Shown here piece by piece: positions 8,066-30,490 of a stretch of DNA of 32,726 bases. How positions within the stretch are numbered: the stretch's first letter is position 1; each line of letters starts with the position of its first letter. This stretch comes from Chiloscyllium plagiosum. Its lineage: Eukaryota. Below the pieces are notes generated by a model. That model saw only the letters and a program-made list of their open reading frames with translations. It was not told the origin of the DNA and did not search any database. A program made the translations under genes and the position numbers. The stretch spans positions 1 to 32,726 of the forward strand of contig NW_025214029.1 of NCBI RefSeq assembly GCF_004010195.1, written 5' to 3'.

Positions 8066-8232
8066 CTCACCGGGAGGTGACGGTTCCCGGGCAGTCACCG
8101 GGAGGGGACGGTTCCCGGGCAGTCACCGGGAGGGGACGGTTCCCGGGCAGTCACCGGGAGGGGACGGTTCCCGGGCAGTCACCGGGAGGGGACGGTTCCC
8201 GGGCAGTCACCGGGAGGGGACGGTCACCGGGC
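8066..8232. repeat. 28-bp minisatellite, about 6 copies
   Basis: Unit gggaggggacggttcccgggcagtcacc. Confidence 0.93.
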
Positions 8233-8609: not shown

Positions 8610-11600
8610 AATATTCCCCCTGGGACACTGCAGAATGGGAATATTCCCCACGGGGCACTGCAAACGGAGAATACTCCCCCCCGAGGCACTGTGTGATGGG
8701 GATACTCCCCATGGGACACTGTGTGATGGGAATACTCCCCCCCCAGGACACTGTGTGATGGGGACACTCCCCCTGGGACACTGTGCGATGGGAATACTCC
8801 CCCTGGGACACTGTGTGATGGGAATACTCCCCCCCCAGGACACTGTGTGATGGGGACACTCCCCCTGGGACACTGTGCGATGGGAATACTCCCCCTGGGA
8901 CACTGTGTGATGGGAATACTCCCCCCCCAGGACACTGTGTGATGGGGACACTCCCCCTGGGACACTGTGCGATGGGAATACTCCCCCTGGGACACTGTGT
9001 GATGGGAATACTCCCCCCCCAGGACACTGTGTGATGGGGACACTCCCCCTGGGACACTGTGCGATGGGAATACTCCCCCTGGGACACTGTGTGATGGGAA
9101 TACTCCCCCCCCAGGACACTGTGTGATGGGGACACTCCCCCTGGGACACTGTGCGATGGGAATACTCCCCCTGGGACACTGTGTGATGGGAATACTCCCC
9201 CCCCAGGACACTGTGTGATGGGGACACTCCCCCTGGGACACTGTGCGATGGGAATACTCCCCCTGGGACACTGTGTGATGGGAATACTCCCCCCCCAGGA
9301 CACTGTGTGATGGGGACACTCCCCCTGGGACACTGTGCGATGGGAATACTCCCCCTGGGACACTGTGTGATGGGAATACTCCCCCCCCAGGACACTGTGT
9401 GATGGGGACACTCCCCCTGGGACACTGTGCGATGGGAATACTCCCCCTGGGACACTGTGTGATGGGAATACTCCCCCCCCAGGACACTGTGTGATGGGGA
9501 CACTCCCCCTGGGACACTGTGCGATGGGAATACTCCCCCTGGGACACTGTGTGATGGGAATACTCCCCCCCCAGGACACTGTGTGATGGGGACACTCCCC
9601 CTGGGACACTGTGCGATGGGAATACTCCCCCTGGGACACTGTGTGATGGGAATACTCCCCCCCCAGGACACTGTGTGATGGGGACACTCCCCCTGGGACA
9701 CTGTGCGATGGGAATACTCCCCCTGGGACACTGTGTGATGGGAATACTCCCCCCCCAGGACACTGTGTGATGGGGACACTCCCCCTGGGACACTGTGCGA
9801 TGGGAATACTCCCCCTGGGACACTGTGTGATGGGAATACTCCCCCCCCAGGACACTGTGTGATGGGGACACTCCCCCTGGGACACTGTGCGATGGGAATA
9901 CTCCCCCTGGGACACTGTGTGATGGGAATACTCCCCCCCCAGGACACTGTGTGATGGGGACACTCCCCCTGGGACACTGTGCGATGGGAATACTCCCCCT
10001 GGGACACTGTGTGATGGGAATACTCCCCCCCCAGGACACTGTGTGATGGGGACACTCCCCCTGGGACACTGTGCGATGGGAATACTCCCCCTGGGACACT
10101 GTGTGATGGGAATACTCCCCCCCCAGGACACTGTGTGATGGGGACACTCCCCCTGGGACACTGTGCGATGGGAATACTCCCCCTGGGACACTGTGTGATG
10201 GGAATACTCCCCCCCCAGGACACTGTGTGATGGGGACACTCCCCCTGGGACACTGTGCGATGGGAATACTCCCCCTGGGACACTGTGTGATGGGAATACT
10301 CCCCCCCCAGGACACTGTGTGATGGGGACACTCCCCCTGGGACACTGTGCGATGGGAATACTCCCCCTGGGACACTGTGTGATGGGAATACTCCCCCCCC
10401 AGGACACTGTGTGATGGGGACACTCCCCCTGGGACACTGTGCGATGGGAATACTCCCCCTGGGACACTGTGTGATGGGAATACTCCCCCCCCAGGACACT
10501 GTGTGATGGGGACACTCCCCCTGGGACACTGTGCGATGGGAATACTCCCCCTGGGACACTGTGTGATGGGAATACTCCCCCCCCAGGACACTGTGTGATG
10601 GGGACACTCCCCCTGGGACACTGTGCGATGGGAATACTCCCCCTGGGACACTGTGTGATGGGAATACTCCCCCCCCAGGACACTGTGTGATGGGGACACT
10701 CCCCCTGGGACACTGTGCGATGGGAATACTCCCCCTGGGACACTGTGTGATGGGAATACTCCCCCCCCAGGACACTGTGTGATGGGGACACTCCCCCTGG
10801 GACACTGTGCGATGGGAATACTCCCCCTGGGACACTGTGTGATGGGAATACTCCCCCCCCAGGACACTGTGTGATGGGGACACTCCCCCTGGGACACTGT
10901 GCGATGGGAATACTCCCCCTGGGACACTGTGTGATGGGAATACTCCCCCCCCAGGACACTGTGTGATGGGGACACTCCCCCTGGGACACTGTGCGATGGG
11001 AATACTCCCCCTGGGACACTGTGTGATGGGAATACTCCCCCCCCAGGACACTGTGTGATGGGGACACTCCCCCTGGGACACTGTGCGATGGGAATACTCC
11101 CCCTGGGACACTGTGTGATGGGAATACTCCCCCCCCAGGACACTGTGTGATGGGGACACTCCCCCTGGGACACTGTGCGATGGGAATACTCCCCCTGGGA
11201 CACTGTGTGATGGGAATACTCCCCCCCCAGGACACTGTGTGATGGGGACACTCCCCCTGGGACACTGTGCGATGGGAATACTCCCCCTGGGACACTGTGT
11301 GATGGGAATACTCCCCCCCCAGGACACTGTGTGATGGGGACACTCCCCCTGGGACACTGTGCGATGGGAATACTCCCCCTGGGACACTGTGTGATGGGAA
11401 TACTCCCCCCCCAGGACACTGTGTGATGGGGACACTCCCCCTGGGACACTGTGCGATGGGAATACTCCCCCTGGGACACTGTGTGATGGGAATACTCCCC
11501 CCCCAGGACACTGTGTGATGGGGACACTCCCCCTGGGACACTGTGCGATGGGAATACTCCCCCTGGGACACTGTGTGATGGGAATACTCCCCCCCCAGGA

Positions 11601-13686
11601 CACTGTGTGATGGGGACACTCCCCCTGGGACACTGTGCGATGGGAATACTCCCCCTGGGACACTGTGTGATGGGAATACTCCCCCCCCAGGACACTGTGT
11701 GATGGGGACACTCCCCCTGGGACACTGTGCGATGGGAATACTCCCCCTGGGACACTGTGTGATGGGAATACTCCCCCCCCAGGACACTGTGTGATGGGGA
11801 CACTCCCCCTGGGACACTGTGCGATGGGAATACTCCCCCTGGGACACTGTGTGATGGGAATACTCCCCCCCCAGGACACTGTGTGATGGGGACACTCCCC
11901 CTGGGACACTGTGCGATGGGAATACTCCCCCTGGGACACTGTGTGATGGGAATACTCCCCCCCCAGGACACTGTGTGATGGGGACACTCCCCCTGGGACA
12001 CTGTGCGATGGGAATACTCCCCCTGGGACACTGTGTGATGGGAATACTCCCCCCCCAGGACACTGTGTGATGGGGACACTCCCCCTGGGACACTGTGCGA
12101 TGGGAATACTCCCCCTGGGACACTGTGTGATGGGAATACTCCCCCCCCAGGACACTGTGTGATGGGGACACTCCCCCTGGGACACTGTGCGATGGGAATA
12201 CTCCCCCTGGGACACTGTGTGATGGGAATACTCCCCCCCCAGGACACTGTGTGATGGGGACACTCCCCCTGGGACACTGTGCGATGGGAATACTCCCCCT
12301 GGGACACTGTGTGATGGGAATACTCCCCCCCCAGGACACTGTGTGATGGGGACACTCCCCCTGGGACACTGTGCGATGGGAATACTCCCCCTGGGACACT
12401 GTGTGATGGGAATACTCCCCCCCCAGGACACTGTGTGATGGGGACACTCCCCCTGGGACACTGTGCGATGGGAATACTCCCCCTGGGACACTGTGTGATG
12501 GGAATACTCCCCCCCCAGGACACTGTGTGATGGGGACACTCCCCCTGGGACACTGTGCGATGGGAATACTCCCCCTGGGACACTGTGTGATGGGAATACT
12601 CCCCCCCCAGGACACTGTGTGATGGGGACACTCCCCCTGGGACACTGTGCGATGGGAATACTCCCCCTGGGACACTGTGTGATGGGAATACTCCCCCCCC
12701 AGGACACTGTGTGATGGGGACACTCCCCCTGGGACACTGTGCGATGGGAATACTCCCCCTGGGACACTGTGTGATGGGAATACTCCCCCCCCAGGACACT
12801 GTGTGATGGGGACACTCCCCCTGGGACACTGTGCGATGGGAATACTCCCCCTGGGACACTGTGTGATGGGAATACTCCCCCCCCAGGACACTGTGTGATG
12901 GGGACACTCCCCCTGGGACACTGTGCGATGGGAATACTCCCCCTGGGACACTGTGTGATGGGAATACTCCCCCCCCAGGACACTGTGTGATGGGGACACT
13001 CCCCCTGGGACACTGTGCGATGGGAATACTCCCCCTGGGACACTGTGTGATGGGAATACTCCCCCCCCAGGACACTGTGTGATGGGGACACTCCCCCTGG
13101 GACACTGTGCGATGGGAATACTCCCCCTGGGACACTGTGTGATGGGAATACTCCCCCCCCAGGACACTGTGTGATGGGGACACTCCCCCTGGGACACTGT
13201 GCGATGGGAATACTCCCCCTGGGACACTGTGTGATGGGAATACTCCCCCCCCAGGACACTGTGTGATGGGGACACTCCCCCTGGGACACTGTGCGATGGG
13301 AATACTCCCCCTGGGACACTGTGTGATGGGAATACTCCCCCCCCAGGACACTGTGTGATGGGGACACTCCCCCTGGGACACTGTGCGATGGGAATACTCC
13401 CCCTGGGACACTGTGTGATGGGAATACTCCCCCCCCAGGACACTGTGTGATGGGGACACTCCCCCTGGGACACTGTGCGATGGGAATACTCCCCCTGGGA
13501 CACTGTGTGATGGGAATACTCCCCCCCCAGGACACTGTGTGATGGGGACACTCCCCCTGGGACACTGTGCGATGGGAATACTCCCCCTGGGACACTGTGT
13601 GATGGGAATACTCCCCCCCCAGGACACTGTGTGATGGGGACACTCCCCCTGGGACACTGTGCGATGGGAATACTCCCCCTGGGACT
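8610..13686. repeat. About 30-bp minisatellite organised as a 92-bp higher-order repeat, about 54 apparently identical copies
   Basis: Three monomers (30+30+32 bp) of ggacactgtg(t/c)gatggg(aat/gac)actccccc. The line pattern recurs every 1380 bp (15 x 92). Degenerate monomers at 8610-8715. Confidence 0.97.
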
Positions 13687-13855
13687 TTCTCTCTACTTCT
13701 CCCTCCCTTCCTTCCTCCCTCCCTCCCTCCCCCCCCTGCTGTAACCTGCCTGGCTGTGTGTCTGTGTGGGGTGCTCTCACTGGGCCATGTTGCTCTGGGA
13801 GCTTCGGGGCCCAGTTTCCAGGCTCTGACTGTGAACATTGCCTCCCCCCCCCCAG

Positions 13856-15400: not shown

Positions 15401-15413
15401 GTACACTGACTGG

Positions 15414-15503
15414 TGCCCCCTCGGCTGTGCCCGAGGGCCCCCCGCCCCCCTCGGCTGTGCCCGGGGGCCCCCCGCCCCCCTTGGCTGGGCCCAGGGGCCC
15501 CCT
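15414..15503. repeat. 30-bp GC-rich repeat, 3 copies
   Basis: gcccccctcggctgtgcccg(a/g)gggcccccc. Confidence 0.85.
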
Positions 15504-15697
15504 GATGCTCAGCTCTCACTCGGACCGAGCTAGCTCCTCAATTGAGGACTGTGTGTCACCGGGAAGTGAAGAGCTCACCCCCCCCCTCCACCCAGCCCAG
15601 TAGTTCCTACTAAAGGCTGTGGCTGACGATTCCTGTTTCACGTGAGTTGCCTCGTTGCTGTCATCACGTTTGCCTCTTGTTCTCTGTCTGTCTGTAG

Positions 15698-15869
15698 TCG
15701 GGTCTCCTGCCTCCAGTAACTGGCCACACTCTGACCCTGTGTCGGAACTCCATCCTGCTCCTCATCGGAGGCTACTCCCCACAGAACGGCTTCAACAACA
15801 AGCTCCTGGAATACGACATCCGCTCCACAAACTGGAGTGTCCGCCAGCACACAGGAACGGCCCCAACAG
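15698..15869 (+). CDS. MEGF8: MEGF8 exon H (Kelch repeat)
   Basis: tctgtag| ... ACAG|gtacag. Manual translation SGLLPPVTGHTLTLCRNSILLLIGGYSPQNGFNNKLLEYDIRSTNWSVRQHTGTAPT (MEGF8 GHTLT...GGYSPENGFN...GTPPT). Confidence 0.93.
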
Positions 15870-17105
15870 GTACAGGCACGAGGACTGCCCCGACAGGTAC
15901 AGGCACGGGTACGGGACCAGCCCCGACAGGTACAGGCACAGGGGCCGCCCCGACAGGTACAGGCACAGGGGCCGCCCCGACAGGTACAGGCACAGGGACC
16001 GCCCCGACAGGTACAGGCACGAGGACTGCCCCTACAGGCACGAGGACTGCCCCGACAGGTACAGGCACGAGGACTGCCCCAACAGGTACAGGCACAGGGG
16101 CCGCCCCGACAGGTACAGGCACGAGGATTGCCCCGACAGGTACAGGCACAGGGGCCGCCCCGACAGGTACAGGCACGGGGACTGCGCCGACAGGTACAGG
16201 CACGAGGACTGCGCCGACAGGTACAGGCACGAGGACTGCCCCGACAGGTACAGGCACGAGGACTGCGCCGACAGGTACAGGCACGAGGACTGCGCCGACA
16301 GGTACAGGCACGAGGACTGCGCCGACAGGTACAGGCACGAGGACTGCGCCGACAGGTACAGGCACGAGGACTGCGCCGACAGGTACAGGCACGAGGACTG
16401 CGCCGACAGGTACAGGCACGAGGACTGCGCCGACAGGTACAGGCACGAGGACTGCGCCGACAGGTACAGGCACGAGGACTGCGCCGACAGGTACAGGCAC
16501 GAGGACTGCGCCGACAGGTACAGGCACGAGGACTGCGCCGACAGGTACAGGCACGAGGACTGCGCCGACAGGTACAGGCACGAGGACTGCGCCGACAGGT
16601 ACAGGCACGAGGACTGCGCCGACAGGTACAGGCACGAGGACTGCGCCGACAGGTACAGGCACGAGGACTGCGCCGACAGGTACAGGCACGAGGACTGCGC
16701 CGACAGGTACAGGCACGAGGACTGCGCCGACAGGTACAGGCACGAGGACTGCGCCGACAGGTACAGGCACGAGGACTGCCCCGACAGGTACAGGCACGAG
16801 GACTGCCCCAACAGCGGGACCAGCCCCGACGGGCACAGGGACGAGCCCCGACAGGCACAGGGACGAGCCCCGACAGGGACAGGCACGGGGACAGCCCCGA
16901 CAGGGACAGGCACGGGGACAGCCCCGACAGGGACAGGCACGGGGACAGCCCCGACAGGGACAGGCACGGGGACAGCCCCGACCGTTAGAAGTACGGGAAC
17001 AGCCCCGACCGGTACAGGCAGGGGATCCGCCCCCGACCGGTACAGGCAGGGGAGCCGCCCCCGACCGGCACAGGCAGGGGAGCCGCCCCCGACCGGCACA
17101 GGCAA
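15847..17105. repeat. 27-bp minisatellite containing the exon H splice donor
   Basis: Unit gcacgaggactgcgccgacag-gtacag. The first copy overlaps the exon H end, and the array degenerates after about 16810. Confidence 0.95.
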
Positions 17106-17311
17106 GGAAAGGCTTCCTATGGATCTCGAGTGCTTGTCATGGTGTTCAGACCTTGACAGTCCGAGTTGGGGGGAGAGAGAGAGAGAGACTCTGATTTGAC
17201 ACAGTGGCTGATGGAGCGCCTGTGGATGGGCTGTGTTCAATCTGCAGTTGTGTGTTTGACCTGCTGTGCATGGGCCATGTCTGTTCTGACGATGCTTTCT
17301 GCACCTTCCAG

Positions 17312-17475
17312 GGTTATACGGGCACTCAGCCGTTTACCACCCAGCCACGGATGCAGTCTATGTGTTTGGGGGCTATCGGTTTTACCTGGAGAGTGTGTCA
17401 GCGTCCCGTGAGCTGTACAGCCTGTACCTCCCTGGGCTGAGCTGGAGCTTGCTCGCCCCCTCCCACGGTGCAAAG
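17312..17475 (+). CDS. MEGF8: MEGF8 exon I (Kelch repeat)
   Basis: cttccag| ... AAG|gtatcg. Encodes GLYGHSAVYHPATDAVYVFGGYRFYLESVSASRELYSLYLPGLSWSLLAPSHGAK, near-identical in motif to MEGF8 GLYGHSAVYHEATDSLYVFGG...WSLLAPSQGAK. Confidence 0.96.
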
Positions 17476-17585
17476 GTATCGCTGGAAACTGCTTGGATGT
17501 CTCTGACCAGCTTGGGGAATTGGGGCAGGAAGGGGGCTGTGTTCCCGCTCCGAGTCTAACTGTCCCTGTGTTCACTTGGTTACAG

Positions 17586-17730
17586 CCCCTCGCTCACTTC
17601 TTCCATGTTTCCGGCTTGTTTCGGGACACGATGGTGGTAGTTGGAGGTCGTACAGAGACAGAGGACTTCAGTGCCGCCATCTTGCTGTACCACATCAACT
17701 GCAACACCTGGATCACGGTGAACCAGACAG
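17586..17730 (+). CDS. MEGF8: MEGF8 exon J (Kelch repeat)
   Basis: ctaac branch-like site, tacag| ... ACAG|gtacag. Encodes PLAHFFHVSGLFRDTMVVVGGRTETEDFSAAILLYHINCNTWITVNQT. Confidence 0.93.
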
Positions 17731-20700
17731 GTACAGTCACACCGGGATCGCGGTGAACCAGACAGGTACAGTCACACCTGGATCGCGGTGAACCAGACAG
17801 GTACAGTCACACCGGGATTGCGGTGAACCAGACAGGTACAGTCACACCGGGATCGCGGTGAACCAGACAGGTACAGTCACACCGGGATCGCGGTGAACCA
17901 GACGGGTCCAGTCATACCTGGATCGCGGTGAACCAGACAGGTACAGTCACACCGGTATCACGGTGCAGCAGACAGGTCCAGTCACACCGGGATCACGATG
18001 AAGCAGACAGGTCCAGTCACACCGGGATCACGGTGCGGCAGACAGGTCCAGTCCCACCGGGATCACGGTGCGGCAGACAGATACAGTCGCACCGGGATCG
18101 CGGTGAACCAGACAGGTACAGTCACACCGGGATCGCGGTGAACCAGACGGTTCCAGTCACACCTGGATCACGGTGAACCAGACAGGTACAGTCACACCGG
18201 GATCTTGGTGAACCAGACAGGCCCAGTCACACCGGGATCTCGGTGAACCAGACAGGTCTAGTCACATCGGGATCACGGTGCAGCAGACAGGTACAGTCAC
18301 ACCTGGATTACGGTGAACCAGACAGGTACAGTCACACCGGGATCGCGGTGAAACAGACATGTCCAGTCACACCGGGATCGCGGTGAACCAGACAGGTCCA
18401 GTCACACCGGGATCGCGGTGAACCAGACAGGTCCAGTCACACCGGGATCGCGGTGCAGCAGACAGGTACAGTCACACCGGGATCACGGTGCGGCAGACAG
18501 GTACAGTCACACCGGGATCACGGTGCAGCAGACAGGTACAGTCACACCGGGATCGCGGTGAACCAGACGGGACCAGTCACACCTGCATCACGGTGAACCA
18601 GACGGGACCAGTCACACCTGGATCACGGTGAACCAGACAGGTCCAGTCGCACCGGGATCGCGGTGAACCAGACAAGTACAGTCACTCCGGGATCGCGGTG
18701 AACCAGACGGGACCAGTCACACCTGGAGCACGGTGAACCAGACAGGTCCAGTCACACCGGGATCGCGGTGAACCAGACAGGTACAGTCACACCGGGATCA
18801 CGGTGCAGGAGACAGGTCCAGTCACACCGGGATCACGGTGAAGCAGACAGATCCAGTCACACCGGGATCACGGTGAAGCAGACAGGTCCAGTCACACCGG
18901 GATCACGGTGAACCAGACAGGTCCAGTCACACCGGGATCGCGGTGAACCAGACAGGTCCAGTCACACCGGGATCACGGTGCGGCAGACAGGTACAGTCAC
19001 ACCGGGATCACGGTGCAGCAGACAGGTCAGTCACACCGGGATCACGGTGAACCAGACAGGTCCAGTCACACCGGGATTGCGGTGAACCAGACAGGTACAG
19101 TCACACCGGGATCACGGTGCAGGAGACAGGTCCAGTCACACCGGGATCACGGTGCAGGAGACAGGTCCAGTCACACCGGGATCGCGGTGAAGCAGGCAGA
19201 TCCAGTCACACCGGGATCGCAGTGAGGCCGACAGGTCCAGTCACACCGGGATCGCGGTGAGGCCGACAGGTCCAGTCACACTGGGATAGCGGTGAGGCCG
19301 ACAGGTCCAGTCACTCCGGGATCGCGGTGAGGCAGACAGGTCCAGTCACTCCGGGATCGCGGTGAGGCCGACAGGTCCGGTCACACCGGGATCGCGGTGA
19401 GGCCGACAGATCCGGTCACACCGGGATCACGGTGAGGCCGACACGTCCGGTCACTCCGGGATCGCGGTGAGGCCGACACGTCCGGTCACACCGGGATCAC
19501 GGCGAGGCCGACACGTCCGGTCACACCGGGATCACGGCGAGGCCGACACGTCCAGTCACACCGGGATCGCGGCGAGGCCGACACGTCCAGTCACACTGGG
19601 ATCGCGGTGAGGCCGACACGTCCAGTCTCTCCGGGATCGCGGTGAGGCCGACAGGTCCAGTCTCTCCGGGATCGCGGTGAGGCCGACAGGTCCAGTCACT
19701 CCGGGATCGCGGTGAGGCCGACAGGTCCAGTCACACCGGGATCGCGGTGAGGCCGACAGGTCCAGTCTCTCCGGGATCGCGGTGAGGCCGACAGGTCCAG
19801 TCACTCCGGGATCGCGGTGAGGCCGACAGGTCCAGTCACACCGGGATCGCGGTGAGGCCGACACGTCCAGTCACACTGGGATCGCGGTGAGGCCGACACG
19901 TCCAGTCTCTCCGGGATCGCGGTGAGGCAGACAGGTCCAGTCACTCCGGGATCGCGGTGAGGCCGACACGTCCAGTCTCTCCGGGATCGCGGTGAGGCAG
20001 ACAGGTCCAGTCACTCCGGGATCGCGGTGAGGCCGACACGTCCAGTCTCTCCGGGATCGCGGTGAGGCAGACAGGTCCAGTCACTCCGGGATCGCGGTGA
20101 GGCCGACAGGTCCAGTCACACCGGGATCGCGGTGAGGCCGACACGTCCAGTCTCTCCGGGATCGCGGTGAGGCAGACAGGTCCAGTCACTCCGGGATCGC
20201 GGTGAGGCCGACACGTCCAGTCTCTCCGGGATCGCGGTGAGGCAGACAGGTCCAGTCACTCCGGGATCGCGGTGAGGCCGACACGTCCAGTCTCTCCGGG
20301 ATCGCGGTGAGGCAGACAGGTCCAGTCACTCCGGGATCGCGGTGAGGCCGACACGTCCAGTCTCTCCGGGATCGCGGTGAGGCAGACAGGTCCAGTCACT
20401 CCGGGATCGCGGTGAGGCCGACAGGTCCAGTCACACCGGGATCGCGGTGAGGCCGACACGTCCAGTCTCTCCGGGATCGCGGTGAGGCAGACAGGTCCAG
20501 TCACTCCGGGATCGCGGTGAGGCCGACACGTCCAGTCTCTCCGGGATCGCGGTGAGGCAGACAGGTCCAGTCACTCCGGGATCGCGGTGAGGCCGACACG
20601 TCCAGTCTCTCCGGGATCGCGGTGAGGCAGACAGGTCCAGTCACTCCGGGATCGCGGTGAGGCCGACACGTCCAGTCTCTCCGGGATCGCGGTGAGGCAG

Positions 20701-23250
20701 ACAGGTCCAGTCACTCCGGGATCGCGGTGAGGCCGACAGGTCCAGTCACACCGGGATCGCGGTGAGGCCGACACGTCCAGTCTCTCCGGGATCGCGGTGA
20801 GGCAGACAGGTCCAGTCACTCCGGGATCGCGGTGAGGCCGACACGTCCAGTCTCTCCGGGATCGCGGTGAGGCAGACAGGTCCAGTCACTCCGGGATCGC
20901 GGTGAGGCCGACACGTCCAGTCTCTCCGGGATCGCGGTGAGGCAGACAGGTCCAGTCACTCCGGGATCGCGGTGAGGCCGACACGTCCAGTCTCTCCGGG
21001 ATCGCGGTGAGGCAGACAGGTCCAGTCACTCCGGGATCGCGGTGAGGCCGACAGGTCCAGTCACACCGGGATCGCGGTGAGGCCGACACGTCCAGTCTCT
21101 CCGGGATCGCGGTGAGGCAGACAGGTCCAGTCACTCCGGGATCGCGGTGAGGCCGACACGTCCAGTCTCTCCGGGATCGCGGTGAGGCAGACAGGTCCAG
21201 TCACTCCGGGATCGCGGTGAGGCCGACACGTCCAGTCTCTCCGGGATCGCGGTGAGGCAGACAGGTCCAGTCACTCCGGGATCGCGGTGAGGCCGACACG
21301 TCCAGTCTCTCCGGGATCGCGGTGAGGCAGACAGGTCCAGTCACTCCGGGATCGCGGTGAGGCCGACAGGTCCAGTCACACCGGGATCGCGGTGAGGCCG
21401 ACACGTCCAGTCTCTCCGGGATCGCGGTGAGGCAGACAGGTCCAGTCACTCCGGGATCGCGGTGAGGCCGACACGTCCAGTCTCTCCGGGATCGCGGTGA
21501 GGCAGACAGGTCCAGTCACTCCGGGATCGCGGTGAGGCCGACACGTCCAGTCTCTCCGGGATCGCGGTGAGGCAGACAGGTCCAGTCACTCCGGGATCGC
21601 GGTGAGGCCGACACGTCCAGTCTCTCCGGGATCGCGGTGAGGCAGACAGGTCCAGTCACTCCGGGATCGCGGTGAGGCCGACAGGTCCAGTCACACCGGG
21701 ATCGCGGTGAGGCCGACACGTCCAGTCTCTCCGGGATCGCGGTGAGGCAGACAGGTCCAGTCACTCCGGGATCGCGGTGAGGCCGACACGTCCAGTCTCT
21801 CCGGGATCGCGGTGAGGCAGACAGGTCCAGTCACTCCGGGATCGCGGTGAGGCCGACACGTCCAGTCTCTCCGGGATCGCGGTGAGGCAGACAGGTCCAG
21901 TCACTCCGGGATCGCGGTGAGGCCGACACGTCCAGTCTCTCCGGGATCGCGGTGAGGCAGACAGGTCCAGTCACTCCGGGATCGCGGTGAGGCCGACAGG
22001 TCCAGTCACACCGGGATCGCGGTGAGGCCGACACGTCCAGTCTCTCCGGGATCGCGGTGAGGCAGACAGGTCCAGTCACTCCGGGATCGCGGTGAGGCCG
22101 ACACGTCCAGTCTCTCCGGGATCGCGGTGAGGCAGACAGGTCCAGTCACTCCGGGATCGCGGTGAGGCCGACACGTCCAGTCTCTCCGGGATCGCGGTGA
22201 GGCAGACAGGTCCAGTCACTCCGGGATCGCGGTGAGGCCGACACGTCCAGTCTCTCCGGGATCGCGGTGAGGCAGACAGGTCCAGTCACTCCGGGATCGC
22301 GGTGAGGCCGACAGGTCCAGTCACACCGGGATCGCGGTGAGGCCGACACGTCCAGTCTCTCCGGGATCGCGGTGAGGCAGACAGGTCCAGTCACTCCGGG
22401 ATCGCGGTGAGGCCGACACGTCCAGTCTCTCCGGGATCGCGGTGAGGCAGACAGGTCCAGTCACTCCGGGATCGCGGTGAGGCCGACACGTCCAGTCTCT
22501 CCGGGATCGCGGTGAGGCAGACAGGTCCAGTCACTCCGGGATCGCGGTGAGGCCGACACGTCCAGTCTCTCCGGGATCGCGGTGAGGCAGACAGGTCCAG
22601 TCACTCCGGGATCGCGGTGAGGCCGACAGGTCCAGTCACACCGGGATCGCGGTGAGGCCGACACGTCCAGTCTCTCCGGGATCGCGGTGAGGCAGACAGG
22701 TCCAGTCACTCCGGGATCGCGGTGAGGCCGACACGTCCAGTCTCTCCGGGATCGCGGTGAGGCAGACAGGTCCAGTCACTCCGGGATCGCGGTGAGGCCG
22801 ACACGTCCAGTCTCTCCGGGATCGCGGTGAGGCAGACAGGTCCAGTCACTCCGGGATCGCGGTGAGGCCGACACGTCCAGTCTCTCCGGGATCGCGGTGA
22901 GGCAGACAGGTCCAGTCACTCCGGGATCGCGGTGAGGCCGACAGGTCCAGTCACACCGGGATCGCGGTGAGGCCGACACGTCCAGTCTCTCCGGGATCGC
23001 GGTGAGGCAGACAGGTCCAGTCACTCCGGGATCGCGGTGAGGCCGACACGTCCAGTCTCTCCGGGATCGCGGTGAGGCAGACAGGTCCAGTCACTCCGGG
23101 ATCGCGGTGAGGCCGACACGTCCAGTCTCTCCGGGATCGCGGTGAGGCAGACAGGTCCAGTCACTCCGGGATCGCGGTGAGGCCGACACGTCCAGTCTCT
23201 CCGGGATCGCGGTGAGGCAGACAGGTCCAGTCACTCCGGGATCGCTATTC
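17705..23250. repeat. 35-bp CpG-rich minisatellite containing the exon J splice donor; distal part is a 315-bp (9 x 35) higher-order repeat
   Basis: Unit caccgggatcgcggtgaaccagacag-gtacagtca, drifting to ...gaggccgacacgtccagtctc. Identical 82-aa ORFs recur every 315 bp from 19941 to 23024. Confidence 0.97.
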
Positions 23251-24120
23251 AGGAAGGGGAGGAGAGATAGGCCAGGTAATTACAGAGCAGATAGTCTGAC
23301 AGCAGGGAGAGGGAAATTATTGGACACAATTCTGAGGGACAGAATGAATCAACATTTGGAAAGGCAGAGATCGATTATGGATACTCTCCCAAATTCAGCT
23401 GAGATTTTTGTTTGAAATTACGGTTGAGGATTTTGATGAGGGCAGTGAAGAAGATGGAGTTCATTAAGGCATTTGACAAGGTCACTCATGGAACGCTGGT
23501 CCAACAGACCAATGGGATCCAAGGCAATTTGGGAACCTGGATGCACAATGGTGGAGGGTAAGTTTTGTGTTTGAAATTCTTTCACCAGCGGGTGTACCAC
23601 AGGGATCTGTGCAGCAACCATTGCTGGTTATTATAGAATATAGAACATAGAAAAGTACAGCACAGAACAGGCCCTTAGGCCCATGAAGTTGTGCCGATAC
23701 TTAATCCTAATGTAAAATATAGTAACTTAACCTATGCACCCCTCAACTCTTTCTTATCCATGTGCATGTCCAGTAGTCGCGAAAATGTCCCCAATGACAC
23801 TCCTTCCACCACCGCAGCTGGCAACACATTCCATGCATTCACAACTCTCTGCGTAAAGAACCTACCTCTGATGTCTCCATTATACCTTCCTCCTTATATC
23901 TTCAAACTTTGACTTCTCATACCAGTCAATCCTGCCCTGGGGAAAAATCTCTGGCTATGGACTCTATCTATGACTCTAATTATTTTGAACAGTAATATGT
24001 ACATTAATAATTCGATGTGAAAGCACAAGGTATCATTTGTAAGTTTGCTGATGACATGAAAGATGAGGCTGTTGCCCACAGTGAGGGGGATGGTCTCAGG
24101 TTACAATCTGAAGGTTGAGG
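23249..24120 (+). mobile_element. Old CR1 RT fragment interrupted by a nested minus-strand CR1 3' end
   Basis: LFRKGRRDRPGNYR...KLLDTILRDRMNQHLE and KAFDKV before the insert, then MYINN...KFADD after it. Confidence 0.78.
23633..23995 (-). mobile_element. CR1-type LINE 3' terminal fragment (nested insertion)
   Basis: Begins with the reverse-complement tail atagaatatagaacatagaaaagtacagcacagaacaggccc. The minus strand gives FKIIRVIDRVHSQRFFP and FFTQRVVNAWNVLP. Confidence 0.85.
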
Positions 24121-24139
24121 ACAGAACAGGCGCTGAGAG

Positions 24140-24330
24140 AGGAGGAGTATTGGAGTTTCTGATCAGTGAAAACATCAGAGCATTAATTAGATAGGATATT
24201 CCTGGGGATCGCCCAGTGAAGATATAATGGTGCAACTGAGAAATGAGAATGGGTTATCAGTTTGATATGACTGTACTACAGGCCCCCAACAGTCAGCGAG
24301 AATTTCAGCAGAATGGGAAATTAGACTGAT
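24140..24330 (+). mobile_element. Highly decayed CR1 endonuclease fragment
   Basis: GGAGGAGTA...GAAAACATC and TACTACAGGCCCCCAACAGTCAGCGAG resemble GGV..LI.ENI and YYRPPNSQRE. Confidence 0.55.
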
Positions 24331-24651
24331 GCAGTGAGGGTTACACAGGGAGAATGGCACCGAGTCCCAGAGAGATCTGGAAAATCCCAGTCTCCCTCCC
24401 TGGCCTGTGCTGTTGCGTCTCTCTGGATTGGAGGATTCAGTTAGCTCAAGATCTGGAGTAGCTCCAAAAGCGAGAGACACTGGCAGAGGCAGCATTTAGA
24501 CCCTCACAGTGAGGGATACCACATGGAGAGAGACTGAGTGATATCAGCAGAGTGCAGGAAGATTTCATAATGAAACAATTATGTCGGAAGAACAGGTTTA
24601 AGTTCCTGATGCCCTGGTATCAGTGCTCAGCAATGAGCAACCTTTGAGCAG

Positions 24652-25010
24652 GTGAAGTAATGGCCTAGTGGTATTATTGCTAGAGCATGTATCCAAAACA
24701 TCACCCAATGTTCACTGGAGACAGGTTTGAATCCCATCATCAGAACTGGTGGAATTTGCAGTCAATACTTTTTTAAAATTGCAATTAACAATCCATTAAT
24801 AAGTACGAAACTATTGCTGACGTCCAAAATAACGTTTGGTCATCAAAATGATACTTGGGGACATCTGCCATCCTCACGTGGTCAGCAAAGTGATTGCCTT
24901 GCAATTACCCTCTGAAATGGCTGAGCAAGTTACTCAGCTCATGGGCAGCTAGGGCTGGGAAGCAAGGCTGGTCAGCCAGAGAAACCCACACCCCATACCT
25001 GATTTAAAAT
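24652..25010 (+). mobile_element. tRNA-derived SINE, decayed
   Basis: Pol III A box TGGCCTAGTGG (24661-24671) and B box GGTTTGAATCC (about 24724-24734). The GGGCAGCTAGGGCTGGG...GCTGGTCAGCCAG tail resembles the LINE tail near 7310-7350. Confidence 0.65.
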
Positions 25011-26129
25011 ATAATCCATTAGGATGGTCCTACTGGAACTGTGCTGGAACCAGTGTCTTGGCCAATCATGTTAGTAGGCTTAAGGACAGGGTTTCAAACT
25101 GACAGAGCGGATGCAGGGACAGGGTTCAGGTGAAAAGAGCTTTCCAAATCCAAATAGAAAAGGTGAAGCATCGGAACAACATGGGGATGTGGCTGAAGAC
25201 AAGCAGAAAGGAACAGGATGGGACAGCGATTAACTAAAACTGTGCGTCAGGGAATCGGTTTGTGACAGGAAATTGTAGGAAACGTATATTATGTTTTGTT
25301 TTGGAATGAACAAAGTCTCTGCAATTAGGTAGATGGATTTGTAACAGAGATAAAAGAGAGTTAGACACCAGGGTGACGTGGTTACAGGGTGAACAAAAGG
25401 TGGGCATAAATATTCAATGATTTGCAACCTTGCGGAATATCAATAATGGATACCAAAGGAATTATAGAGAAAGCATTTGGCCGCAGATCATGAAGTAGAG
25501 TCAGTCTGAATGTAAATTCAGTCTATTACCTGCCAAGGACACAAGCAGCAGAACAGTTTTCGGCCACCAAACAGCATTTCATTGCTCATCGCTGCATTAA
25601 ACAGGAACTCATTGGAATTTTTAATAAAGGCATAATGACAATTCAGTGAAACTTCAAAATTCGTATAATTTGGGACAATCACACTGACAACAGTGATATT
25701 GGAAGGGGAGTTCGGACAATTGTTTTCAGTGTTTCTTTGAATAACACATAGTTACAGCCCTAGTTGCACAATGTCAGATCGACCGTTGTGTGATGGAACT
25801 TAGTGAATGAGAAATGTCACCTGGAGAGATCCTCCGGGAAATTGTGATAAAGTGCAGTTTAAAGCAATATAAAATGTGAAAGTGAATCACAGAAAGGACA
25901 AGCTACAATTAAAAACAAAAATAGCCAATTACATGAGTTTAAGAGGAGAACTGACCAAGGTAAATAGGCTAAAAAGATTGAAACGTGTGTGTAAATGAAC
26001 AGTGGAAAACATTTGAAGGAACAGTGTAAAACACTCAAGAAAAAGACATTCCATTGAAACAGACAAAACCTCAACGAGAAACTCACACCTGTCCCTCACT
26101 CAGGACAAAATCGAGTGTGAGGTTGAGAA

Positions 26130-26844
26130 GATCGATTGGAAACTCTTTAGATCAAGTAGATTGGATGGGGCGGTGTTTGTGCAGTGTGTCCAGGAAGCTT
26201 TTCTAACTCAGTATGTAGATTGTCCAACCAGAGGGGAGGCCATATTGGATTTGGTACTCGGTAATGAACCGGGACAAGTGATGGGCTTGTTAGTGGGTGA
26301 ACATTTTGGTGATGGTGACCACAATTCTGTGACTTTCACCTTGGTTATGGAGAGAGATAGGTGCGCACAACAAGGTAGATTTTATAATTGGGGGAAGGGA
26401 AATTACGATGCAGTAAGGCAGGATTTGAGGAGCATACGTTGGGAGCATAGGCTGTCAGGGAAGGATGTGGTGGAAATGTGGAACTTCTTCAAAGAGCAGA
26501 TACGACGTGTCCATGATATGTATGTACCTATCAGGCAGGAAAGAAATGGTCGTGTGAGGGAACCTTGGATGACGAGGGGGGTTGAATGTCTTGTAAAGAG
26601 GAAGAAGGAGGCTTACATAAGGTTGAGGAAACAGGATTCAGACAGAGCAGTGGAGGGATACAGGATAGCCAGAAAGGACCTGAAGAAAGGGATTAGGAGA
26701 GACAAGAGAGGGCATGAAGGATCAAGGATAACCCAAAGGCATTTTATGCGTATGTGAGAAACCTGAGAATGACGAGAACGAGGATAGGTCCGATCAAGGA
26801 CAGTAGTGGGAGAATGTGTATTGAGTCAGAAGAGATAGGAGAGG
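26130..26844 (+). mobile_element. CR1 LINE ORF2 fragment (endonuclease end and tether), runs into gap
   Basis: ORF 26161-26757 FVQCVQEAFLTQYVDCPTRGEAILDLVLGNEPGQV...GDGDHN...EPWMT, homologous to the minus-strand element at 4150-4925. Confidence 0.93.
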
Positions 26845-27773
26845 NNNNNNNNNNNNNNNNNNNNNNNNNNNNNNNNNNNNNNNNNNNNNNNNNNNNNNNN
26901 NNNNNNNNNNNNNNNNNNNNNNNNNNNNNNNNNNNNNNNNNNNNNNNNNNNNNNNNNNNNNNNNNNNNNNNNNNNNNNNNNNNNNNNNNNNNNNNNNNNN
27001 NNNNNNNNNNNNNNNNNNNNNNNNNNNNNNNNNNNNNNNNNNNNNNNNNNNNNNNNNNNNNNNNNNNNNNNNNNNNNNNNNNNNNNNNNNNNNNNNNNNN
27101 NNNNNNNNNNNNNNNNNNNNNNNNNNNNNNNNNNNNNNNNNNNNNNNNNNNNNNNNNNNNNNNNNNNNNNNNNNNNNNNNNNNNNNNNNNNNNNNNNNNN
27201 NNNNNNNNNNNNNNNNNNNNNNNNNNNNNNNNNNNNNNNNNNNNNNNNNNNNNNNNNNNNNNNNNNNNNNNNNNNNNNNNNNNNNNNNNNNNNNNNNNNN
27301 NNNNNNNNNNNNNNNNNNNNNNNNNNNNNNNNNNNNNNNNNNNNNNNNNNNNNNNNNNNNNNNNNNNNNNNNNNNNNNNNNNNNNNNNNNNNNNNNNNNN
27401 NNNNNNNNNNNNNNNNNNNNNNNNNNNNNNNNNNNNNNNNNNNNNNNNNNNNNNNNNNNNNNNNNNNNNNNNNNNNNNNNNNNNNNNNNNNNNNNNNNNN
27501 NNNNNNNNNNNNNNNNNNNNNNNNNNNNNNNNNNNNNNNNNNNNNNNNNNNNNNNNNNNNNNNNNNNNNNNNNNNNNNNNNNNNNNNNNNNNNNNNNNNN
27601 NNNNNNNNNNNNNNNNNNNNNNNNNNNNNNNNNNNNNNNNNNNNNNNNNNNNNNNNNNNNNNNNNNNNNNNNNNNNNNNNNNNNNNNNNNNNNNNNNNNN
27701 NNNNNNNNNNNNNNNNNNNNNNNNNNNNNNNNNNNNNNNNNNNNNNNNNNNNNNNNNNNNNNNNNNNNNNNNN
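26845..27773. other. Assembly gap (N run)
   Basis: 929 N. Confidence 1.
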
Positions 27774-27945
27774 TGTCTCTGATAGCTCCCTCCTTCCCCC
27801 GTCTCTGTCTCTGATAGCTCCCTCCCTTCCCCCGTCTCTGTCTCTGATATCTCCCTCCCGCGCCCATCTGTCTCTGATATCTACCTCCCGCCCCGTCTCT
27901 GTCCCTGATTTCTCCTCGATATCATGTCCCTGATATCTCTCTCTC
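27774..27945. repeat. About 32-bp pyrimidine-rich minisatellite abutting the gap and merging into the exon K acceptor
   Basis: tgtctctgatagctccctccttcccccgtctc variants. Confidence 0.85.
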
Positions 27946-27964
27946 TCTGTGTCTCGGGTCCCAG

Positions 27965-28229: not shown

Positions 28230-30490
28230 CTCCAAATCCCAGTGCGGAGAGATCACTCAATCCATGCCTAGGGGGGACACAATCTTAGTGTGGAGAGATC
28301 ACCTGATCCCTGCCTAGGGGGGACACAATCCCGGTGCGGAGAGATCACTGATCCCTGCCCAGGGGGACACAATCCCAGTGCGGAGAGATCACCCGATCCC
28401 TGCCCAGAGGGACACAATCCCAGTGCGGAGAGATCACCCGATCCCTGCCTAGGGGGGACACAATCCCGGTGCGGAGCCTAGCGGGACACAATCCCAGTGC
28501 AGAGAGATCACCGATCCCTGCCCAGGGGGACACAATCCCGGTGTGGAGAGATCACCCGATCCCTGCCCGGGGGGGGACACAATCTCAGTGTGGAGAGATC
28601 ACCTGATCCCTGCCCAGGGGGGCACAATCCCAGTGTGGACAGATCACCCGATCCCTGCCCGGGGGGGCACAATCCCAGTGTGGACAGATCACCCGATCCC
28701 TGCCCGGGGGGGGGACACAATCTCAGTGTGGAGAGATCACCCGATCCCTGCCCAGGGGGGCACAATCCCAGTGTGGAGAGATCACCCGATCCCTGCCCAG
28801 GGGGACACAATCCCAGTGCAGAGAGATCACCCGATCCCTGCCCGGGGTGGGGGAAACAATCCCAGTGCAGAGAGATCACCGATCCCTGCCCAGGGGGACA
28901 CAATCCCGGTGTGGAGAGATCACCCGATCCCTGCCCGGGGGGGGACACAATCTNNNNNNNNNNNNNNNNNNNNNNNNNNNNNNNNNNNNNNNNNNNNNNN
29001 NNNNNNNNNNNNNNNNNNNNNNNNNNNNNNNNNNNNNNNNNNNNNNNNNNNNNNNNNNNNNNNNNNNNNNNNNNNNNNNNNNNNNNNNNNNNNNNNNNNN
29101 NNNNNNNNNNNNNNNNNNNNNNNNNNNNNNNNNNNNNNNNNNNNNNNNNNNNNNNNNNNNNNNNNNNNNNNNNNNNNNNNNNNNNNNNNNNNNNNNNNNN
29201 NNNNNNNNNNNNNNNNNNNNNNNNNNNNNNNNNNNNNNNNNNNNNNNNNNNNNNNNNNNNNNNNNNNNNNNNNNNNNNNNNNNNNNNNNNNNNNNNNNNN
29301 NNNNNNNNNNNNNNNNNNNNNNNNNNNNNNNNNNNNNNNNNNNNNNNNNNNNNNNNNNNNNNNNNNNNNNNNNNNNNNNNNNNNNNNNNNNNNNNNNNNN
29401 NNNNNNNNNNNNNNNNNNNNNNNNNNNNNNNNNNNNNNNNNNNNNNNNNNNNNNNNNNNNNNNNNNNNNNNNNNNNNNNNNNNNNNNNNNNNNNNNNNNN
29501 NNNNNNNNNNNNNNNNNNNNNNNNNNNNNNNNNNNNNNNNNNNNNNNNNNNNNNNNNNNNNNNNNNNNNNNNNNNNNNNNNNNNNNNNNNNNNNNNNNNN
29601 NNNNNNNNNNNNNNNNNNNNNNNNNNNNNNNNNNNNNNNNNNNNNNNNNNNNNNNNNNNNNNNNNNNNNNNNNNNNNNNNNNNNNNNNNNNNNNNNNNNN
29701 NNNNNNNCCCCCACCCGGGACACACGATCCCAGTGCGGAGGGATCACCCGATCCCCACCCGGGACACATGATCCCGGTGCGGAGAGGTCACCTGATCCCC
29801 ACACGGGGGACACGATCCCGGTGCGGAGAGATCACCTGACCCCCACCCGGGACACACGATCCCAGTGCGGAGGGATCACCCGATCCCCACCCGGGACACA
29901 TGATCCCGGTGCGGAGAGGTCACCTGATCCCCACACGGGGGACACAGTCCCAGTGCGGAGAGATCACCCGATCCCTGCCCAGGGGGACACAGTCCCAGTG
30001 CGGAGAGATCACCCGATCCATGCCCAGGGGGACACATTCCCAGTGCGGAGAGATCACCTGATCCCCACACGGGGGGGCACGATCCTGGTGCGGAGAGATC
30101 ACCCGATTCCCACAGTGGGGGCACTATCCCGGTGCGGAGAGATCACCCGATCCCCTCATGGGACACAAGATCCCGGTGCGGAGAGATCACCTGATCCCCA
30201 CACGGGGGACACGATCCCGGTGCGGAGAGATCACCTGATCCCCAGACGGGGGACACGATCCCGGTGCGGAGAGATCACCTGACCCCCACCCGGGACACAC
30301 GATCCCAGTGCGGAGGGATCACCCGATCCCCACCCGGGACACATGATCCCGGTGCGGAGAGGTCACCTGATCCCCACACGGGGGACACGATCCCGGTGCG
30401 GAGAGATCACCCGATCCCTGCCTGGCACACTTGATCCCGGTGCAGAGTGACCATGTGAGTCTGGTGCAGCGAGCTCACCTGATCCCCATC
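28230..30490. repeat. About 44-bp minisatellite, interrupted by a gap
   Basis: Unit atcccagtgcggagagatcacccgatccctgcccagggggacaca. A variant with ccccacccgggacac occurs right of the gap and decays toward about 30850. Confidence 0.93.
28954..29707. other. Assembly gap (N run)
   Basis: 754 N. Confidence 1.

Follow-up and report, generated by a model that had tools for sequence, protein, structure and literature searches.

A donor-spanning minisatellite in MEGF8 of Chiloscyllium plagiosum carries 34 in-frame copies of a splice donor, with the first copy used in the main transcript

Minisatellites that extend across a splice donor have been described in several animal genes. In human F7, the 37-bp VNTR of IVS7 contains functional pseudo-donors that become active when the first donor is inactivated, yet splicing normally takes the most upstream site and no other (Borensztajn et al. 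2006, PMC1557585). The same source cites CBS IVS13, 6-16, LAMIN B2 and PDGF as further donor-spanning minisatellites of 10-25 copies, with two nearby pseudo-sites also used in CBS and 6-16, and the real donor only in LAMIN B2 and PDGF (cited in PMC1557585). The 25-bp VNTR in intron 18 of ABCA7 is described as leading to retention of one unit in about 2% of cases and to length-dependent skipping of the next exon (PMC5954066). In amphioxus, tandem duplications of exon-intron boundaries known as mirages occur in Adh3, troponin C, the globins BflGb6/9 and PGBD5, and leave splicing undisturbed (PMC3087553, PMC3902484). General background on repeats at exon-intron boundaries is given in PMC2812944. 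The lectin repeats of prawns were considered as a further precedent and rejected, being described as exonic repeats (PMC7536079).

The window analysed here, the whole 32,726-nt stretch of Chiloscyllium plagiosum DNA (contig NW_025214029.1, assembly GCF_004010195.1), holds exons of MEGF8. A search with the peptide of the exon labelled H matched five shark protein clusters, four of them named MEGF8, and the C. plagiosum RefSeq model XP_043542300.1 (P0010) matched all 12 exons of the window in order, as expected of the MEGF8 orthologue. Identity to P0010 is 100% wherever a match stays within an exon, slightly above that to the C. punctatum and Hemiscyllium models. The 11 junctions tested translate into P0010, and GT/AG ends were fitted to it for 11 introns, including 15870-17311 (1,442 nt) and 17731-27964. 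An earlier note, made from the letters alone, had named the gene as MEGF8, placed an acceptor at 17312 and calculated that the repeated donors are in frame; the protein matches, the GT/AG fit and the motif positions show it to have been right on each point.

MEGF8 is a negative regulator of Hedgehog signalling. P0010 combines laminin-EGF domains with a Kelch propeller, as do the named MEGF8 proteins. The Pfam propeller PF24981 covers residues 369-651 and encloses the junction between exons H and I, which reads ...TGTAPT/GLYGHSAVY (here and in the motifs below, a slash marks the splice boundary); this motif we take to be the linker into a Kelch blade, consistent with the LZTR1 alignment. No MEGF8 chain occurred among the 25 PDB sequences matched, and none of the papers listed by a search for MEGF8 together with shark, its coverage leaving most subscription papers outside, concerns this locus by title and abstract opening.

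Exon H (15698-15869, 172 nt; all features are on the + strand) is a coding exon of phase 1 in the Kelch-type beta-propeller part, with boundaries fitted to P0010, and it ends ...TGTAPT-G. The array begins at its end. The founder unit (15850-15876) joins roughly the final 20 nt of exon H to the first 7 nt of the intron, a 20 + 7 split that is our reading of the unit sequences, and carries the real donor, CAG/GTACAG with its GT at 15870; it was recognised by the identity between unit and exon and by the spliced contigs discussed below. The proximal array (15870-16814, defined by motif positions) contains the real donor and 33 in-frame pseudo-donors with the exact sequence ACAG/GTACAG, their GTs at 15870, 15897, 15930, 15957, 15984, 16011, 16059 and onward to 16788, together with one additional in-frame CGG/GTACGG at 15909. 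The 33 spacings between exact sites, all multiples of three, comprise 31 of 27 nt, one of 33 nt and one of 48 nt, and the frame of exon H runs through the array with no stop, reading TGTGTRTAP and variants of it. The claim of the earlier note that a donor had been amplified into about 34 in-frame tandem copies is thus confirmed in number, position, spacing and reading frame.

For the whole repeat, TRF reports 15860-17104 with a period of 27, 46.7 copies and 90% matches, a head-to-tail tandem array with units in the range of 10-100 bp. The window contains 50 ACAG/GTACAG sites against 0.08 expected from shuffles, 34 in this array and 16 in a second one, on which the earlier note is silent; the excess is a product of tandem duplication and not of independent sites. 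The donor 9-mer is the same in every ACAG/GTACAG copy of the 27-bp array, 20 of 33 units are one identical 27-mer, and 19 of these are consecutive. Within the unit, ACAG recurs at a spacing of 6 nt. The donor-bearing part shows two length changes, +6 and -6, both of which keep the frame. Beyond it lie decayed units of 18-28 nt (16815-17104, assigned by unit length) that carry no ACAG/GT. Four of them read ACAG/GGACAG, in agreement with the loss of the GT in distal copies that had been claimed earlier, and CCG/GTACAG occurs twice, at 17012 and 17040. Counted from 16807, the distal units number 11, five of them frame-breaking (22 or 28 nt). A non-repetitive remainder of 207 nt (17105-17311, fitted to P0010) completes the intron and ends in the acceptor ...CACCTTCCAG, which is followed by exon I (17312-17475, 164 nt) and, after a further intron, by exon J (17586-17730, 145 nt), which ends in the same ACAG/GTACAG donor 10-mer. 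Both exons were delimited by the fit to P0010 and by the contigs.

The resemblance between exon end and repeat unit, also noticed earlier, holds under direct comparison. When the 20 nt ahead of each copy are set against the final 20 nt of exon H, 14-17 of 20 positions agree, with the exon ending ...GGCCCCAACAG and array units ending, for example, ...GCCCCGACAG or ...GCGCCGACAG. This supports the view that the array arose from the end of the exon. Since the exon-end motif is kept across 91 homologous protein segments, the exon end must be older than the array, and copying went from exon to array and not the reverse.

With its first unit across a real exon-intron boundary and the donor repeated identically downstream, the array belongs with human F7 IVS7, ABCA7 intron 18 and the amphioxus mirages as a donor-spanning minisatellite. 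The likeness to F7 IVS7, as described in PMC1557585, includes the first unit across the boundary, identical pseudo-donors after the real one and use of the most upstream site, here as the main form. The F7 array has 5-9 units and only 4 exonic bases per unit, against 34 donor-bearing units and about 20 exonic bases here; every copy here is in frame, and donor choice in F7 was shown by mutagenesis, whereas here it is read from contigs (PMC1557585). As in the reported ABCA7 VNTR, the unit carries the donor GT directly after the exon, but the repeat of ABCA7 opens with the GT itself and shifts the frame, whereas the 27-bp unit is in frame (PMC5954066). The mirages share with it tandem duplication of a boundary, homogenised inner units and divergent edge units; according to the amphioxus reports, however, 5' and 3' boundaries are both duplicated there and length instability has been demonstrated, whereas the present array is on the donor side (PMC3087553, PMC3902484). 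A rule that only donor-side arrays are tolerated was considered, two of the 12 donors being amplified here and 13855 being the one acceptor with look-alikes upstream, which have no more in common with it than a C-run plus AG; it was dropped, since amphioxus has acceptor-side mirages. As it stands, the array adds a further case to a class already described.

Evidence on donor choice comes from public sequencing runs, four of the 24 listed being compared with 17110-17765; none of the runs is recorded as RNA. Two runs from different samples and studies, X13 (RNA by a guessed label) and X9 (DNA by a guessed label), with word depths of 35.1 and 243.8, gave one contig each over this segment. Both contigs skip the intron at 17476-17585 from GT to AG and are therefore taken to derive from spliced RNA. 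Before the acceptor at 17312, the single loose end in each contig is a 30-mer whose only match is at 15837-15866, which implies the junction 15869/17312, that is, exon I joined to exon H's own end at the first donor. Each contig runs through exons H, I, J and K in turn, and no skipped exon is listed. Among the 10 of 32 pieces listed, neither run has repeat-unit letters at acceptor 17312, an observation that concerns major forms. Contigs lose rare variants, and a path 27-60 nt longer is of the kind that an assembler removes, so these data describe the main form. The most upstream donor is thus the main one in two of two contig runs, and the suggestion that the cell must select the first of many identical donors is upheld.

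Transcripts in which exon I follows varying numbers of units, which the isoform ladder proposed in the earlier note would produce, are absent from the major forms in X13 and X9, and the ladder is unsupported as the main product. That note had also held that the idea would fall if all junction reads used 15869/17312: this outcome is seen at the level of contigs but not at that of reads, where the two raw single-cell runs gave two reads (X21, in exon J) and none (X22) over 17110-17765, too few for a count. Nine runs contained 0.43 of the words against 0.425 expected for exon-only sequence; seven of these were not counted as evidence.

Taken together, these observations make it very probable that this is a real donor-spanning minisatellite, whose copies are pseudo-donors and whose first donor gives the main form. 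On this explanation, a piece of about 27 bp across the exon H donor would have been duplicated in tandem, and the array would then have been expanded and homogenised, presumably by slippage or unequal exchange. With all copies lying downstream of the intact exon and its first donor, the spliceosome would pick the most upstream functional donor, by a choice like that in F7, and mRNA and protein would stay unchanged. The array would have been free to grow within a former intron of about 210 nt; without it the intron measures 207 nt. The copies would be silent, or the nearest one or two would be used in traces, and the array is most likely neutral. By analogy with CBS, 6-16 and ABCA7, such trace use is plausible, at somewhat less than an even chance by our own estimate, and would not by itself imply function.

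Masking of the copies by RNA structure was tried as a reason for the choice and rejected: the chance of the 9-mer being unpaired is 0.004 at donor 1 against 0.003-0.19 at the next 19 copies. As folding around the sites does not set the first donor apart, the cue is probably its position and not its structure.

A more far-reaching alternative, in which several downstream donors are used, Thr/Gly/Pro nonamers enter the inter-blade loop and the frame is under selection, draws on the same features. All 33 copies are in frame and stop-free, the donor 9-mer is identical in all of them, and folding hides them no more than donor 1. The first five later donors would lengthen exon H from 172 to 199, 232, 259, 286 and 313 nt and add 9, 20, 29, 38 and 47 residues. 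If true, the ladder would show a minisatellite lengthening, step by step, a MEGF8 loop that is otherwise constant. Donor 1 is nonetheless the one used in both spliced contigs, the exon would exceed 300 nt by the fifth extra copy, and in F7 the use of sites is described as falling with distance (PMC1557585).

The protein family also speaks against it. Of 94 proteins gathered, 91 cover the junction region and three fragments do not; the 91 segments come from sharks, rays, bony fish, amphibians, reptiles, birds, a brittle star and a tunicate, no mammal having been matched. Loop length at the junction of exons H and I is constant in 90 of these 91 MEGF8 homologous segments, which have no insert there, so the family offers no sign of tolerating length change at this site; the sequences are annotation models, mostly cluster representatives, which can hide isoforms with small inserts. 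The one segment that departs from this, in an Albula model labelled 'hypothetical, partial', carries an unrelated insert of 21 residues. Such constancy, reaching from sharks and birds as far as a brittle star and a tunicate, indicates that inserts are not favoured. A functional ladder is accordingly highly improbable. A weaker version, in which splicing draws at a low but real rate on the one to four copies closest to the exon, the transcripts escape nonsense-mediated decay and a propeller loop of MEGF8 gains 9-38 Thr/Gly/Pro residues, as an allele- and tissue-dependent protein ladder, is very unlikely as well.

The open frame itself says little. The array body (66 T in 945 nt) has no stop in any of the three forward frames, and shuffled units are stop-free in a given frame in 82% of cases and in all three frames in 51%; openness of the exon frame is thus weak as a sign of selection. 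An array that is in frame and stop-free needs no selection, a unit length divisible by three being a one-in-three event. Coding in a different frame or on the opposite strand was considered and rejected: five of the six frames are free of stops, in line with composition. Frame-breaking units are confined to the distal part that carries no ACAG/GT, a point in favour of the functional ladder, and this is the direction that selection on the frame predicts, with about two events to be set against three. The +6 and -6 changes match the ACAG repeat of the unit with its 6-nt spacing, and slippage alone would suffice to explain them.

A second donor-spanning array, behind exon J, serves as a control (17710-23245, 35-bp unit, 158 copies; TRF and a count of CAG/GT). 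Its 96 CAG/GT sites include 16 exact ACAG/GTACAG, 77 read GTCCAG, and they fall into the three frames as 36/35/25. Read-through meets a stop within the first intronic unit. The X13 and X9 contigs leave this array at its first donor (17730) for exon K; X13 also contains low-depth contigs of 35-bp units, which are intronic or come from elsewhere in the genome. That the sister array is out of frame weighs against selection on the frame of the first, and one in-frame array out of two is the chance expectation. The two arrays place in one gene an in-frame, stop-free repeat and an out-of-frame, stop-bearing repeat with the same donor 10-mer, both spliced at the first copy, a natural test of 5' splice-site choice. 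Transcripts from later donors of the 27-bp array, being in frame and stop-free, would not be removed by nonsense-mediated decay, and read counts there would therefore measure donor choice.

A C. punctatum MEGF8 model continues into sequence of the 35-bp unit, with a match at 20 of 22 residues, and the 35-bp array is therefore probably older than the split between C. plagiosum and C. punctatum. Among the 12 donors of the window, two are amplified and the other 10 are not. The two, at 15866-15879 and 17727-17740, share 13 of 14 bases, ACAG/GTACAGxCAC. The resemblance may be a coincidence noticed in hindsight, or duplication may be seeded by the ACAG repeat inside the donor; in the latter case, donor sequence would predict where such arrays arise.

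A different effect of the array would be on splicing efficiency, with long alleles slowing removal of the intron or causing a neighbouring exon to be skipped. The analogy is with ABCA7, where the VNTR starts from the exon 18 donor and skipping of exon 19 is reported to rise with its length (PMC5954066). One feature of the contigs could be read in this way: the X9 contig ends 171 nt before 17309, about 2 nt past the 5' edge of exon H (15698), and may mark a branch in the transcript graph. This end lies upstream of the array, however, and has other explanations; in that sample the intron at 15401-15697 may be retained, or exon G may be skipped. The contigs of both runs keep exons H, I, J and K in sequence, no skip being listed, and such tuning of splicing is improbable.

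The number of copies, 34, is provisional, in view of the 19 identical units, of a shorter bound from C. punctatum and of an exon missing from the window. In C. punctatum, exons H to J lie on a 1,512-bp contig, which by our arithmetic limits the intron to about 880 nt against 1,442 nt here, a comparison with another species in which the repeat may have collapsed. These points, with the N gaps of the window and the 37-residue exon that the models of two related sharks have and the window has not, could be read as an array that is largely a product of assembly over a true locus of few copies. The first dozen units nevertheless comprise several distinct variants and distal decay is gradual, unlike a collapsed or repeated consensus, and a shorter array in another species or an older assembly equally fits real length variation or collapse there. 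An assembly product is very unlikely, and a genuine minisatellite is retained as the explanation.

The surroundings are rich in repeats. Minisatellites occupy 14,550 of the 26,993 non-N intron bases (54%) of introns 1-11. Most of them start near a donor, as expected if they grew inside short introns, and six unrelated ones within 8031-31707 begin 15-145 nt after a donor, at 8067, 8687, 14053, 15416, 28235 and 31271. Two N gaps lie inside introns and adjoin repeats, at 26845-27773 (929 nt) and 28954-29707 (754 nt). Shorter shark chromosomes are described as having more simple tandem repeats and higher GC (PMC10620051).

Between 8560 and 13855 the window has no match for the 37-residue phase-0 exon found in the Hemiscyllium (P0009, residues 681-717) and C. 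punctatum (P0011) models, and P0010 lacks this exon too. The intron in that segment is filled by a 92-bp array (8687-13685) of 54 units with 99% identity, which makes loss of the exon in assembly more likely than a real deletion. Every 92-bp unit has a run of C and then AG, similar to the acceptor at 13855, with 54 matches within 2 mismatches of 14, and these look-alikes are probably coincidental decoy acceptors.
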